Shown here one piece after another: positions 41,583 through 51,241 of a stretch of DNA of 64,000 nt. This DNA is from Candidatus Palauibacter poriticola (GTDB lineage Bacteria > Gemmatimonadota > Gemmatimonadetes > Palauibacterales > Palauibacteraceae), in assembly GCA_012270965.1 (NCBI GenBank), contig JAAXHJ010000082.1, positions 20,919-84,918 on the forward strand, given 5' to 3'. Positions within the stretch are counted from its first letter, which is position 1; the number at the start of each line of letters is the position of its first letter. A model generated the notes under the pieces. It was not told the origin of the DNA and made no database searches. It saw only the letters and a list, made by a program, of their open reading frames with translations. The position numbers and the translations under genes were made by a program.

Positions 41583-41720
41583 CGCTGGCCGCCCGGGTGC
41601 GCCGACGCTGGCCGCCCGGGTGCGCTGGCGCTGGCCGCCGGTGCGCCGGGCGCGGCTGTGGGTGTGCCGACGCGGCCGCCGGTGCGCCGAGGCGGCCGCC
41701 GGACCGCCGATGCCAGGCTT
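41583..41720. repeat. Tandem ~21-23 bp GC-rich direct repeats (about 6 copies, GACGCTGGCCGCCCGGGTGCGCC-like)
   Basis: Visible as 'gacgctggccgcccgggtgcgcc gacgctggccgcccgggtgcgct ggcgctggccgccggtgcgcc ...'. A second set, 'gccggtgggcggcggcgcttcc' x3, lies at about 41766-41850. Confidence 0.7.
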
Positions 41721-41926
41721 GGTCCCGGCTCAAGCCGAAGCCGCCCGCCGCGAGCCCGGAGATTCGGGCTCGCCGGTGGGCGGCGGCGCTTCCCGGCCGG
41801 TGGGCGGCCGCTTCCTAGCCGGTGAGCGGCGGCGCTTCCGGGTCGGCGTGCTTTGGCTTCCCGGGCACGCCGTCGCCATAATGGGCACCGAACTCTGCAC
41901 ACGATCTGCGCAAGGAGAGTCCGCAC

Positions 41927-45984: not shown

Positions 45985-46799
45985 CCGTCGATTCCCCGTT
46001 CGGCGCGGACCGCGTCGGAGCGAAGACGGCGCTCCAGGCGCTTGCGGCTCGCCGGGTCGGGCGACCGCGCCTCGTGCCAGAGGTGCAGAACCGGGACGGC
46101 GTAGCGCCCCTCCTTGCGTCGCACGCCGCTGCGGATGAGGCGGACGACGAGGTCGTTGTCCTCGAAGCCCCAGCCTTGGAAGCCCTCGTCGAACCCGTTC
46201 ACCGCCACGAAGTCCGAACGCCACAGGGCGAGATTGCACCCCTTGACGCCATGCCACCGCCGGGGTGACATCTGGCGCAGGGGTCCCAGCGGCAGGCGCA
46301 GCAGAGGCGTGAAGCGGTCCACGCGTCCCCGGAGCCACTCGCCGAGCCAGCGGACGGCGCCCCAGCGCTCGATTGCGGGCGGGACCTGCCCGATCGCGAA
46401 CCGCGAGAGTCCGGGGGCGAGCCGCACCCGGCTCCCGTGGACGAAATGCCCCGGCTCGGCGAACCGTGCGTGTCTCGCCACATAGTCCGGCCGCACGAGA
46501 CAATCGCCGTCGAGGAAGATGAGGTACGGCTGGTCGGTCGCGGCGGCGGCCCTGTTCCGGATCGCGGCCAGTCGATACCCCCGGTCCTCTTGCCGGACGT
46601 GCCGTAGGTCGAGGCCGGATTCCTCCGCGTGCCACAGGACGAGTTCGCGCGTCTCCGGGCCGGAACCGTCATCGGCCACGACGATCTCGAAGCGGCGGTA
46701 CGTCTGTTCGGCGAGACTCCTCAGGACCGCGTGGAGGGCGTCGGGCCGGTCATGGGTCGAGACGATGACCGCGATTCCGGGGCCGTCGGACGCCTTCAC
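45975..46799 (-). CDS. Glycosyltransferase family 2 paralog (GalT-like C-terminus)
   Basis: 'VIVSTHDRPDALHAVLRSL', 'IVVADDGSGPETR', 'DGDCLVRPDYV' and 'VAVNGFDEGFQGWGFEDNDLVVRL' are present. The gene is convergent with its paralog at 45106. Confidence 0.8.
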   Translation of the reverse strand: MKASDGPGIAVIVSTHDRPDALHAVLRSLAEQTYRRFEIVVADDGSGPETRELVLWHAEESGLDLRHVRQEDRGYRLAAIRNRAAAATDQPYLIFLDGDCLVRPDYVARHARFAEPGHFVHGSRVRLAPGLSRFAIGQVPPAIERWGAVRWLGEWLRGRVDRFTPLLRLPLGPLRQMSPRRWHGVKGCNLALWRSDFVAVNGFDEGFQGWGFEDNDLVVRLIRSGVRRKEGRYAVPVLHLWHEARSPDPASRKRLERRLRSDAVRAERGIDGYD

Positions 46800-47821
46800 A
46801 CCAAGTATCCCGCGCGCTCCATGACGGGGCCGAACGCGGCTTCGATCCGGGCCGCGTCGGCCGGATCAAGCTCATCCCTCCACCCCTCGGCCTCTCCCCG
46901 GCGAACGAACCGCCCCTCGCCACGCGCGCGCCCCGCGTAGGCCTCCGCGCCGTAGCGCCCCTCCAAGTCTCGCATGGCCTCGAACGACCCGCGCGCCACC
47001 GCCCGCGAGAGCCTCGCGGATGTTTCCGCAGCAACGTCTCCCGCGGCGGCCTGTCTCGCGGCAGCCTGTCCCACCGCAAGGTGTCCCACGGCAAGGTCGT
47101 CCACGGCAAGGTCTTCCGCCGGAACACCGCCCGCGGGAACCGCTCCGATGAACTCCGCCACGCGGCGCAACGCCGCCCCGCGGTCGGCGACAATATCCTC
47201 GTAGCGCACCACGCAGACCCTCTCCCCGCCCTCCGCGCGCCGGAGCGCCGCCGCGACCTGCCGGTCCCATCGCATCAGGTGCCGGTGCCAGGCGTCGAAC
47301 GGAGCGCCGCCGGACAGGTATCCATCCACAAACCTCGAGAGCGTCATGTCACGGTCATCGAACATCGTCGCGAACATGTGCCGGAAGGAGACCAGGACCG
47401 CCCGCGGATCACGCACGAGATAAACGGTTCCGGGATAGCGTCGCGGATGGCGGGGATACTCGTTCCGGAACACCCTCGGGTCCGGGAGGTGGCCGTAGGT
47501 GGTGATCGCGTGGTCGCGGCCGTGAACGAACGGCACGTAGTCGCCGACGTTGTAGAGATTCACGTCCCCGCGGCGATCATCCGACAGCAACACGGCCAGC
47601 ATGTATGCGAGCCAGGTGTTCCCCGACTTGGGATGGCCGACAAGGAAGACATCGGTGGGCCGCAGGGCCCGGCGAAACTCGGGCTCCCGCAGCCGGTTCC
47701 GAAGCCCGTCGCGCAGCCGGTAATACCCGGCTTGGCGCTTGCCGCGACCGAACCATCGCTTGAAGGCGGGGACCGGGCGCCGCCGGATCCGGGGCGGGTC
47801 GAGCCTCGCAGGCCGGTTCAC
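46796..47821 (-). CDS. Sulfotransferase (cytosolic SULT-like, PF00685-type)
   Basis: The 5'-PSB motif 'HPKSGNTW' and 3'-PB motif 'RDPRAVLVSFRHMF' match the PAPS-binding signatures of the Sulfotransfer_1 family. The GTG start at 47821 overlaps the upstream gene's stop (GTGA). The longer ORF-track start would overlap the upstream gene. Confidence 0.7.
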   Translation of the reverse strand: MNRPARLDPPRIRRRPVPAFKRWFGRGKRQAGYYRLRDGLRNRLREPEFRRALRPTDVFLVGHPKSGNTWLAYMLAVLLSDDRRGDVNLYNVGDYVPFVHGRDHAITTYGHLPDPRVFRNEYPRHPRRYPGTVYLVRDPRAVLVSFRHMFATMFDDRDMTLSRFVDGYLSGGAPFDAWHRHLMRWDRQVAAALRRAEGGERVCVVRYEDIVADRGAALRRVAEFIGAVPAGGVPAEDLAVDDLAVGHLAVGQAAARQAAAGDVAAETSARLSRAVARGSFEAMRDLEGRYGAEAYAGRARGEGRFVRRGEAEGWRDELDPADAARIEAAFGPVMERAGYLV

Positions 47822-49488
47822 CGGGACCACGGAACCTGCCGTCCGATGAGTTCCGAGACCTCGTCCGCGTCGAACGCGTACTCCCGTTCGAGGTGATCGC
47901 GTACCCAGTCCGGCATGGGGACGGGATCCGAAGCATTCACCGGCCTCTCCAACGACTCCGCGTCCGGCGTAACGATGTCCGCCTCGAGGAAGCCCAGAAG
48001 ATCGCGTATCAGGTGCCCGGGACCCTCCCGGATCTCGTCCAAAAAACCAAAGAAGAACTGCTCCTGCGGAAAGTGCCCGAACCACGCCCGCAGACACGTC
48101 GCGTAGTCGCTGCGCCGGCGGACCGGATCGCTGTCGAGGAACGAGACGAGTTCGTCGCGGCTCACGGACTCCAACGGTTTGCCCCGCCACCGCGGAAACC
48201 CGTACCGTGCCTGAGACCACGCGCGCTTGATCGGATCGCGCATCATGAAGATGAGCCTCGCGTCGGGCATCCACTCCGCGACGCGCCGGATGACCGCCGG
48301 TTCGAGAATCGCATATGCGGGCGTAATCTCGCCCCGAATCCGGTCGCCCCCCCCGATGCGGCCGCCCCCCCCGATGCGGCCGCCCCCCCGCACGCGGACG
48401 AAGCGGGCGAGATAGCGGAGGCGATCGATGCGATCCCGCACGGATCCGCTCGCGGCGAGTGGCCCAAGCTTGCGGTCGAAGAAGTGGATTTCCTTCCGGC
48501 CCATCCGAATCTGCGGGTGGTGGGAGAGCTGCGCCGCCACCCAACTCGTGCCCGCTCGTGTGGCGCCGATCCCGAGAAAACGAGGCATCTGGCGCGACAG
48601 AGCGCGTTTGCGCACCGAACGCCCGTCGGGTGGCCGAGGCGGATCGATCGGGTCATCGAGAAAGGTCGAGGGCAGGCGGCGAACCGCGACATCCTCCTGC
48701 TCGCCGCGGAGGCGCTGGAACGTGACCCATTCGCGTCGCTTGCGGGGCGAGGGAAAGTCCATCGTCGACCAGTGATCGAACTCCTCCTCGTCAAGGAACT
48801 TCAACTCGTAGAAGCAGACGGGCGCGAAGTGATGCGTCCGAAGCCAGCGGGGGCGGATGAGCTGTTCCCAATGTTCCCGCTTGTGGAACCTAACGCGATA
48901 GCCGCAGGGGGCGATCCGCACCTCCCGGTTCAACTCTCCGCGCCGCGCCAGAAGTGACCCGTCGGCCGTCCGGTATACCGTCTGGCCGGCGAGCGACCAG
49001 GCCCCGGGCCATCCCCGTCCGAGTCCGGCGAGCAAAGCGTCGAAGGCATGCCGCTGCTCGCCCGCGAGCACCATGTCCGCGTCCCACTTGCAGGCGTACC
49101 GCCGGGTGCAGCGCGACAGGGCCCAGTTCGTGAAGTAGACCAGGGAGTGCAGCGAGTCGGCCGGGGTCTCGTCGTGCTCGGGTCCGAACCGTCCCACCCG
49201 GAAGGGATATGAATGAAGGCGGATGTTTGCGCCCCCGGAGGCGGACCCGCGCACGCGCCGCACGATGTCCGCGGTATCGTCACGACTCCCGTTGTCGATC
49301 ACGTGGATCTCTTCGAACACGGGGAGGATCGAGCGCAGGCAGTGCTCGATCTTCGTCCCCTCGTCCCTCGCCCGCACGAAGGCGCTCGTCCCCGGCGCAC
49401 GATTCCGGCGCGGAAGGGAGAACGCGTACTCCTCGTTCCCCTCCCGGTTTCGAAACTCCATCCGGTGGCGGTACGGTAGGCGCATCAT
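47818..49488 (-). CDS. Bifunctional glycosyltransferase (GT2-like) - sulfotransferase fusion protein
   Basis: The N-terminal roughly 230 aa carry 'VIDNGSRDDTADIVRR', a GT2-like motif. The Gly-rich linker is 'RGGGRIGGGGRIGGGDRIRG'. The C-terminal roughly 250 aa carry 'RFLGIGATRAGTSWVAAQL', the PAPS-binding P-loop of Sulfotransfer_3-type enzymes. Confidence 0.7.
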   Translation of the reverse strand: MMRLPYRHRMEFRNREGNEEYAFSLPRRNRAPGTSAFVRARDEGTKIEHCLRSILPVFEEIHVIDNGSRDDTADIVRRVRGSASGGANIRLHSYPFRVGRFGPEHDETPADSLHSLVYFTNWALSRCTRRYACKWDADMVLAGEQRHAFDALLAGLGRGWPGAWSLAGQTVYRTADGSLLARRGELNREVRIAPCGYRVRFHKREHWEQLIRPRWLRTHHFAPVCFYELKFLDEEEFDHWSTMDFPSPRKRREWVTFQRLRGEQEDVAVRRLPSTFLDDPIDPPRPPDGRSVRKRALSRQMPRFLGIGATRAGTSWVAAQLSHHPQIRMGRKEIHFFDRKLGPLAASGSVRDRIDRLRYLARFVRVRGGGRIGGGGRIGGGDRIRGEITPAYAILEPAVIRRVAEWMPDARLIFMMRDPIKRAWSQARYGFPRWRGKPLESVSRDELVSFLDSDPVRRRSDYATCLRAWFGHFPQEQFFFGFLDEIREGPGHLIRDLLGFLEADIVTPDAESLERPVNASDPVPMPDWVRDHLEREYAFDADEVSELIGRQVPWSR

Positions 49489-49622
49489 GTCGGCAAGCTA
49501 CGGCCGCCCCTTCCTCGGGTCAGCCCGCGATCGGATGCTTCCCTTTCGGCTCGCGTCGGCTTAGCCTTCGTGCATGGACGTTACGAATCCCGCTGAGCGG
49601 ACCAACGGGAAGAGGGGAACCG

Positions 49623-50663
49623 TTGCAGCTTTCTGCCATTAGTCTATTCGCCGGTGCCGGCGGCTTGGACCTGGGGGCCCATCAAGCCGGCTTCAGGACG
49701 ATCTGCGCCGTGGAATTGGATCGCCATTGCGCGTCAACGCTGCGGAAGAACCTTCGCCGCAGCGCGATCTGGCAGGTAGACGTTCGTGCACTAGACCCTC
49801 GCCTTGCGGTCGACGCCCTCGGCGTTAAGCCCGGAACGCTAGTGCTGCTACATGGCGGGCCACCCCGCCAACCCTTCAGTCAGATTGGCAAGCAGCTCGG
49901 CGTTGACGACCCACGGGGGCGTCTGATCTTTGAAATGGTTCGCTTTGCAGAGGCCCTACGGCCCGCCGCCGTGTTGATCGAGCAGGTACCGCGGTTCCTG
50001 CAGGCGAACGGCTCTCGGGCGCGGAACATGCAGGATGTGCTACGGGAGCAATTCTCGGCCATCGGTTATGATTATCACGCCGGGATTCTGGACGCCACGC
50101 TGTACGGCGTTCCGCAGCGCCGCAAGCGTGCGATCATTGTCTGCGTACCCGCGGGAACCAGGTTTCACTTTAGCCAGCCCATCTTTCGCGCGACGCCAAC
50201 CGTCGGCGACGCCATCGGCGATCTCCCGCCCGCCGTGCCCAAGGGCGAACCCCCCTTGGCTCCGAATCATGTGGTCGTTACGCCCCTCCGTGATCGAGAG
50301 CGGATTTCGTACGTTCCCGAGGGCGGGTGGCTCTCGAAGGTTCTCGATGCGCCTCCCGACATACGGCGTCGCTTGACCAAGAAGGACACGACCAAGTTCC
50401 GCCGCCTTGACCGAAATCTCCCATCCCTCACCCTTCGGTGCGGCGAGGCCTTGTATCACCCCACCGAGGACCGCTACCTGACTCCACGCGAAGCGGCGCG
50501 GATTCAGGGCCTCCCGGACAGCCACATCTTCGTCGGTCCTCTCCGGCGCCGAACTGGCACCGTGCCCGACCTGGATCAGCACCGGCAGGTCGCCAACGCC
50601 GTACCGCCTCCCTTAGCCAAGAGTGCGGTGGCCGACATCAGGAAGGCTCTGTGCCTCGGGTAG
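49623..50663 (+). CDS. DNA (cytosine-5)-methyltransferase homolog with catalytic Cys replaced by Arg
   Basis: The TTG start follows a GAGGGG RBS. Motif I is 'LFAGAGGLDLG' and motif VIII is 'QRRKR'; motifs IX/X are present ('GNAVPPPLA'). Motif IV reads 'GGPPRQPFS' (codon cgc) instead of 'GGPPCQGFS'. Motif VI reads 'EQV' rather than 'ENV'. Confidence 0.75.
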   Translation: MQLSAISLFAGAGGLDLGAHQAGFRTICAVELDRHCASTLRKNLRRSAIWQVDVRALDPRLAVDALGVKPGTLVLLHGGPPRQPFSQIGKQLGVDDPRGRLIFEMVRFAEALRPAAVLIEQVPRFLQANGSRARNMQDVLREQFSAIGYDYHAGILDATLYGVPQRRKRAIIVCVPAGTRFHFSQPIFRATPTVGDAIGDLPPAVPKGEPPLAPNHVVVTPLRDRERISYVPEGGWLSKVLDAPPDIRRRLTKKDTTKFRRLDRNLPSLTLRCGEALYHPTEDRYLTPREAARIQGLPDSHIFVGPLRRRTGTVPDLDQHRQVANAVPPPLAKSAVADIRKALCLG

Positions 50664-50677
50664 CGGAACTGTTTGGC

Positions 50678-51241
50678 ATGCGACTCGGCGAAGCCGGCTC
50701 GGTGCGGGATCACGTGTGGACGGCACCGTGTCCCCATCGTCGGGAACAGTGCAATGGCGGCGGCAACCGGAATATGGCAAGGTGGCCAGCCATCGAGCAG
50801 CCCTTGGCTCCCCTGTTCGATGCGTCCGTCGGCATCAACTCGAACGGTTTCATCCCATGCGGTGTCTGTTCGGTTCGCGTGGGTGGGGAGGTGTGGGCGA
50901 GAATGGCGTCGCAGCTGATCGTGAAATCCGAGATGGCAAACGCGTGGGGAGGCCGCACGATTTGGGTAATCCAGCATCAATTGGCGGATTACATTCGGAA
51001 AAGCACGGGCTTGAGGCTGGACGCATTGCGGAAGGCGAGTTGGGTTTCAGATGAGGTGAACGTAGTATCCGCCAGCTTGGACGAGCCGAACGACATCAGA
51101 CTATACGCGGGGCGTATTGGCGAAGTGACGGAGGAGGCCGTGTGGTGGGAGTTGGTGAGGTCACCGGGTCTTCCAAGCGTGGAGGTCCTGGAGCGGAGAC
51201 TCTCGGAGCGGGTGCGCAAGACGAGGCTGAGAGTGCGATGA
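50678..51241 (+). CDS. Hypothetical Cys-rich protein downstream of the MTase homolog
   Basis: 188 aa protein with 'CPHRREQC' and 'PCGVC', giving four Cys as a possible zinc site. No confident family assignment was made. The stop overlaps the rhodanese gene start (ATGATGA). Confidence 0.45.
   Translation: MRLGEAGSVRDHVWTAPCPHRREQCNGGGNRNMARWPAIEQPLAPLFDASVGINSNGFIPCGVCSVRVGGEVWARMASQLIVKSEMANAWGGRTIWVIQHQLADYIRKSTGLRLDALRKASWVSDEVNVVSASLDEPNDIRLYAGRIGEVTEEAVWWELVRSPGLPSVEVLERRLSERVRKTRLRVR

Follow-up and report, generated by a model that had tools for sequence, protein, structure and literature searches.

What is a cytosine methyltransferase gene that carries arginine where its family carries the catalytic cysteine: an enzyme fallen into decay, a DNA-binding protein made from one, or a misread base? 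The question is raised by a single gene, referred to here as M, within the 64,000 nucleotides of DNA that were analysed as a whole (the window). The answer that we favour, and consider very probable from sequence comparisons, is early pseudogenisation of M in a decaying NotI-like type II restriction–modification (RM) system, the endonuclease partner of which is denoted R.

The methyltransferase and its missing cysteine

M and the features within it are the following (loci in other assemblies carry L numbers, proteins P numbers).

49623..50663, + strand: C5 cytosine methyltransferase gene (M) of a type II RM pair; full length, catalytic Cys lost
49623..49640, + strand: start region, degraded, as read from the codons and the alignment with L003, L005 and L006
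49866..49868, + strand: CGC codon (Arg82) at the catalytic position of motif IV; ancestral TGC (Cys), one T-to-C transition
49980..49988, + strand: motif VI, EQV; the usual subfamily form, found also in Cys-bearing homologs, and no lesion
50274..50276, + strand: GTC (Val218); Asp in at least 98% of the family, GAC in orthologs
50511..50513, + strand: CTC (Leu297) in the RE.ARIQGFPD block; Phe in at least 98% of the family, TTT in orthologs

The open reading frame of M runs from a TTG at 49623 to a TAG stop at 50663 and encodes 346 amino acids. Its product matches Pfam PF00145 over profile positions 2-322 of 324 (E = 9.5e-53; 180 bits, cutoff 22), NCBIfam TIGR00675 (dcm; E = 4.4e-44; 151 bits, cutoff 100.65) and PADLOC MTase_II (E = 1e-72), aligns with M.HaeIII (1dct_A) over the whole chain (E = 1.8e-29), and is 78-79% identical to its syntenic orthologs P0001, P0002 and P0003. 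The near-complete Pfam match and the end-to-end alignment, with the motifs in the same order, bear out the first-pass annotation, which had described a Dcm-type methyltransferase with its motifs in order. M resembles the type II C5 methyltransferases (PF00145; M.HaeIII and M.HhaI type) in full-length homology, in motif order, in the SAM-binding FAGAGG of motif I (F-x-G-x-G; SLFAGAGGLD, aligned with SLFSGAGGLD of M.HaeIII), in QRR(K)R, and in the C-terminal RE.A..QG.PD and NAVPP. It differs from them in motif IV, where GGPPRQPFS stands opposite GGPPCQSWS of M.HaeIII and, as the annotation had read it, PRQ replaces PCQ, with Arg aligned to the catalytic Cys. A second defect had been seen in EQV. 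That reading has to be given up, since EQV is common among Cys-bearing homologs, including those with an intact R partner, which carry (V/I/L)(L/M/I)IEQV; the Glu of motif VI is retained in M. Judged by its sequence, M is a member of the family by descent that lacks the catalytic residue.

In C5 methyl transfer, the Cys of motif IV adds covalently to C6 of the flipped cytosine to give a Michael adduct; M.HhaI C81S, which has no thiol, is unable to form this bond (PMC3089467). Because the transfer needs thiolate attack on C6, the Arg82 protein is predicted to be catalytically dead, and it may be regarded as the natural counterpart of the laboratory mutants M.HhaI C81S and M.EcoRII C186A.

How widespread is arginine at this position? 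The codon had been placed at about 49878-49880, which is AGT (Ser); the true site lies 12 nt upstream, at 49866-49868. Among 5.8 billion proteins searched, 6,501 were homologous to M at E <= 1e-10, and the best 120 of these are 63-100% identical to M and mostly 345-350 amino acids long. One of the 120, P0007, is this very gene as annotated in other assemblies, where its start was placed at an internal Met and motif IV is left uncovered. All 119 others (63-79% identity) carry PCQ, 118 by pattern match and P0021 (SGPPCQ) by direct reading, and none has Arg. Among loci aligned by tblastn, Cys is present in 82 of 85, and Arg occupies the motif IV position in 0 of the 82 other surveyed loci. The codon is TGC in the syntenic orthologs at L003 and L006, so that the CGC of the window is a single T-to-C transition. 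Orthologs had been named as the check on this position, and with TGC in both of these loci the substitution is a lineage-private mutation and there is no Cys-less protein family.

P0007 sits on two contigs, L001 (ENA ERZ23495086) and L002 (ERZ27298220), both of which have CGC; L001 and the window differ at a single position out of 12,729, and L002 equals the window sequence up to the end of its contig. Arg82 is private to one population. Could the CGC instead be a sequencing, assembly or consensus artefact, the real gene having TGC and encoding an active orphan methyltransferase? A single transition would suffice, and three assemblies could share overlapping read sets and hence a systematic error. 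However, CGC is read in all three assemblies (the window, L001 and L002), which fall under at least two ENA analysis accessions and differ elsewhere, and an artefact would leave the co-occurring private changes in M unexplained. We consider it very improbable. A random assembly or consensus error in particular, such as the single T-to-C sequencing error that the annotation had allowed for, seems unlikely because L001 and L002 also read CGC and the gene has further degenerative changes. Codon 82 may be polymorphic within the population; two metagenome scans for a near-identical TGC allele, with exact flanks and a free first codon base, returned no contigs of any kind and so have no bearing on the allele.

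The further changes fit a gene in decay rather than a misread one. Orthologs begin with ATG-AAA-CGG-CGC-GCC-ATG (MKRRAM), whereas the window has TTG...ATT (LQLSAI), the TTG replacing the orthologous ATG and the ATT (Ile6) the second in-frame ATG. A GAGG Shine-Dalgarno-like site at 49612-49615 precedes the TTG, which is a usable start; gene callers on the L001 and L002 assemblies chose the internal Met at 49935 (P0007). Among 110 columns conserved at 98% or more, M of the window has three private changes (C82R, D218V and F297L), a number reached by just 2 of 118 full-length members, and P0001-P0005 show no deviation at these columns. Against decay, the frame of M is free of internal stop codons and frameshifts, and its start, as noted, is usable.

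The endonuclease partner and its remnant

What would the partner of M have been? At L003, L004 and L005, the gene downstream of P0001 encodes a protein of 327 amino acids, P0121, and overlaps the last 13 nt of M. A relative 56% identical to P0121, P0224, is named 'NotI family restriction endonuclease' by NCBI, and P0121 itself matches PADLOC REase_II (E = 6e-6). Its AlphaFold2 model (pLDDT 76, pTM 0.80), compared with the PDB by Foldseek, finds NotI as the only significant match (3c25_A, E = 8e-8; 3bvq, E = 1e-5 to 9e-5; probability 1.00), the next match having E >0.04; the TM-score to NotI is 0.40-0.49 at an identity of just 11-14%. HMMER searches of Pfam, NCBIfam and the PDB, with P0121 as a single sequence or as a 25-sequence profile, gave nothing significant; their best match, 4ic1_A over the D...E-x-K block, was non-significant (E = 0.61) and was set aside. 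The R family has four invariant Cys (C27, C34, C70 and C73), present also in the remnant described below, and a near-invariant block, YRLDYV...PPVIVEIMT. NotI holds Fe in a Cys4 structural motif and has a PD-(D/E)XK site in which Lys is replaced by Gln (PMC4081073). P0121 is like NotI in a PD-(D/E)XK-like D...E-x-(non-K) core, and its four invariant Cys may correspond to the Fe-Cys4 site; it is unlike NotI in that the third core residue is Met (E-I-M) and that no match exists at the HMMER level. Given the NCBI name of P0224, the REase_II match, the Foldseek match to NotI, and the four Cys together with the core block, we take P0121, as modelled, to be a restriction endonuclease with the NotI fold.

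In the window, the corresponding features are the following.

50651..51241, + strand: remnant of a NotI-family restriction endonuclease (R), found by tblastn with P0121; 196-aa open frame
50879..50890, + strand: in-frame deletion junction; ~129 codons gone, family residues ~78-206

The first-pass annotation had seen no recognisable RM context around M, and here it missed the partner: the open reading frame overlapping the 3' end of M is what is left of a NotI-family endonuclease. It opens with a GTG at the orthologous start and overlaps the end of M by 13 nt, as does the intact ortholog of L003, and in a single frame it matches residues 1-77 of P0121 at 66% and residues 207-320 at 62% identity (tblastn). 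M and R are thus co-oriented and overlapping, as in NotI-family RM systems, with the difference that the core of R is deleted in the window. The deleted segment carries WAVCPRRLL, YRLDYVLR and PPVIVEIMTASTSGGN..KRTD, and corresponds to the best-modelled part of P0121, the beta-sheet core. The PD-(D/E)XK core is accordingly not intact, alignment columns 82-211 being gone and the almost invariant D146, E162 and M164 with them. What remains is the N-terminal domain, with its four invariant Cys, and the C-terminal domain; against PADLOC REase_II the remnant reaches no better than E = 0.006. Its dN/dS of ~0.15 against L003 says nothing about selection, dS being saturated. A second copy of M or R is absent from the 64-kb window. 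With its nuclease core deleted, R is dead, and the RM system in the window is non-functional.

The remnants of R in the window and at three other loci, L015 (5157-5390), L029 (5029-5250) and L068 (5038-5274), break to within a few codons of one another, just after CGVC(S/T)V at about residue 75-78. The four remnants are independent. Their shared break might mark a hot spot for deletions, the boundary of an N-terminal four-Cys domain that is stable by itself, or no more than the end of a conserved block. Avoidance of GCGGCCGC gave no signal in the window, with 17 sites observed against 12.6 expected. The sites are clustered, with three within 140 nt (41672-41811) and two within 26 nt (48358-48383), and the clustered ones fall in repetitive Gly/Arg/Ala-rich coding sequence.

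Stages of decay in related loci

The neighbours of M in the window, with genes for GT2 glycosyltransferases and sulfotransferases on the upstream side and rhodanese, FG-GAP and SelR genes on the downstream side, recur around M at L003-L006 and L087, and these copies are therefore true orthologs. Across the four syntenic lineages, the M proteins share 78-90% mutual identity, and the states of the pair are as follows.

L003/L004/L005: R intact; M with Cys (P0001, 79% identical)
L087: R with an out-of-frame deletion, ~residues 159-236; M with Cys
L006: R absent, M abutting the rhodanese gene; M with Cys
Window/L001/L002: R with an in-frame core deletion; M with Arg

One clade displays four stages of RM decay side by side, and by these lesions R was inactivated at least three separate times within it. 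The species-representative genomes hold no syntenic copy of the M locus, a contig location for P0009 was not found, and Rfam, promoter and terminator scans yielded nothing relevant. Two adjacent sulfotransferase-domain genes lie on the - strand at 46796-49488, one of them encoding a protein of 556 amino acids that is weakly GT2-like at its N-terminus, ends in a sulfotransferase domain and contains a GGGRIGGGGRIGGGDRI repeat. The sulfotransferase cluster and the GT2 genes are conserved in all syntenic lineages and may represent a sulfated-glycan locus.

Does the state of R predict that of M more widely? We surveyed 80 species-representative genomes with the M family; 81 loci, the window among them, could be scored. 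A full-length R lies directly downstream of M in 44 of the 81, so that the two families are often found together.

R full: 44 loci; Cys in 44/44
R degraded: 18 loci; Cys in 17, the other being the window (Arg)
R absent: 19 loci; Cys in 17, the others being L082 (His, in-frame stop) and L084 (Trp, scrambled motif)

Loss of the Cys occurs only where R is dead or absent, in 3 of 37 loci against 0 of 44 (one-sided Fisher p = 0.09), an association that, at such small numbers, is not significant on its own. The damage to R in these genomes takes the form of truncations, frameshifts, an insertion and another in-frame core deletion. At L006, L087 and in ~34 surveyed genomes, R is gone or broken and M is intact with its Cys, as in solitary (orphan) methyltransferases; the window differs from these in having gone one step further, M itself being inactivated.

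The survey also bears on the notion that the Arg82 enzyme is still an active methyltransferase, relying on another nucleophile or mechanism. The SAM-binding motif and all others are present, as such an enzyme would have them. Against this, the inability of M.HhaI C81S to form the covalent bond shows that the thiol is needed (PMC3089467), the Cys is kept at every locus with an intact R and so is required, and motifs IV and VI contain no replacement Cys. We give this notion almost no credence, the least of the alternatives considered here; an Arg82 protein that decayed after its partner accounts for M in the window far better.

The surveyed genomes are metagenome-assembled genomes of many phyla, for example Ca. 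Synechococcus spongiarum, Ca. Poriferihabitaceae and Ca. Porisulfidus, and probably belong to sponge symbionts. The closest genome matches (68-70%) come from unrelated phyla, which points to horizontal spread of the system. Several individual loci deserve mention. OZ244059.1 (Aestuariivita sp.) carries two copies of the system: at L036, R aligns over residues 20-322 of P0121 and M has its Cys, and at L082 (4001-5032) there is no R, PHQ stands for PCQ and the frame contains a stop. L082 is thus a second natural case of Cys loss after R loss. At L025 (493-1527), M has an in-frame stop at about residue 101 next to an apparently full-length R, a combination that should be lethal unless it reflects an assembly error or another copy of M protects the genome. 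At L065 (5003-7448), an insertion of ~1.5 kb, which may be an insertion sequence, splits R between residues 239 and 238-311. Four loci from Terriglobia and Bryobacterales MAGs (L040, L053, L058 and L083) have an R-less M that keeps the Cys, with PCQ replaced by PCP, PCL or PCV and the LLHGG before it by LLCG(G/A); these look like a vertically inherited clade of solitary methyltransferases with an altered motif IV.

Proposed order of events and selection on M

We propose the following model for the locus. An RM pair of a C5 methyltransferase and a NotI-family PD-(D/E)XK endonuclease would have been inherited vertically in the clade and would now be decaying in the lineage of the window. R would first have lost its catalytic core through the in-frame deletion of ~129 codons that is seen in the window, and the cell would therefore no longer have needed protective methylation. 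M, freed from constraint, would then have gained the TGC-to-CGC change that replaces Cys82 with Arg, and would also have lost both ATG starts, leaving TTG, and acquired D218V and F297L. The substitution itself, like the lost starts, D218V and F297L, is read directly from the codons; that the loss in R preceded it we infer because loss of M under an active R is lethal, and this order agrees with every surveyed locus. Of the options that the first-pass annotation had left standing, an inactivated methyltransferase is the one that gains from these findings, with the nucleophile and both ATG starts lost and the core of the partner deleted. M of the window is probably an early-stage pseudogene, its frame still intact and weakly translated.

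Proteins with bulky substitutions of the catalytic Cys are inactive and are not known to be toxic. Gly and Ala substitutions in M.HhaI and M.EcoRII, by comparison, produce lethal tight-binding proteins (PMC4437897; bioRxiv 10.1101/2020.03.09.983320). By analogy, the bulky Arg82 may avoid the toxic tight binding of the Gly and Ala mutants, and the weak TTG start would limit any toxicity.

Could the protein, having lost its Cys, have been recruited as a dead, sequence-specific DNA-binding regulator or roadblock, possibly together with the in-frame remnant of R? Several points favour this: both frames are open; the in-frame deletion in R spares both terminal domains, the N-terminal one with its four Cys; M.EcoRII and M.HhaI mutated at the catalytic Cys retain binding to their sites, in some cases very tight (PMC4437897; bioRxiv 10.1101/2020.03.09.983320); and the overall dN/dS is low. 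However, Arg82 occurs in one population only and is not conserved across diverged orthologs; the regulator that the annotation had offered as an option draws no support from the homologs, with Arg in 0 of 119 (the best 120 minus P0007) and in 0 of the 82 other loci. The changes found alongside it are degenerative, namely the loss of both ATGs, D218V, and F297L, the last of these in a DNA-contact or fold motif; other R-less loci are plainly pseudogenised (L082, with His and a stop codon), and a low dN/dS reflects the long functional history that preceded the mutation. We therefore think a binding role improbable, if marginally less so than an artefact, and retain early pseudogenisation as the reading of the locus.

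What does selection on M say about the timing? Three-taxon branch estimates for M of the window give dN 0.100 and dS 0.957, a ratio of ~0.10. The Cys-bearing orthologs have the same level (0.12 for L003, 0.09 for L006), and most flanking genes lie above it. For M and R alike, dS approaches saturation (1.0-1.9), and the ratios are to be read accordingly. Apart from the few private changes, branch dN/dS detected no relaxed selection on M. Such a low ratio fits decay only if the inactivation of M is recent, and since the whole-branch value is still 0.10, we infer that it is: C82R would be a recent change in a gene that had been constrained for nearly all its history.

Both enzyme families, the C5 methyltransferases and the NotI-like endonucleases, are already known, as is the path by which RM systems decay to solitary and then dead methyltransferases. 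The locus is an ordinary case of recent inactivation, and the 'Cys-less methyltransferase' is no new protein class. It offers a natural snapshot of RM decay in the expected order, with death of the nuclease followed by drift of the methylase. For annotation, M of the window should neither be recorded as an active methyltransferase nor counted as a functional defence system.

At 63-64%, the G+C content of the segment containing M and R (49500-51000) lies below that of the flanking 10 kb (66-73%). Between orthologs, the segment also has a higher dS (1.0-1.5) than the flanking genes (0.4-1.2). Both values fit a horizontally acquired cassette of other codon usage that was later inherited vertically.
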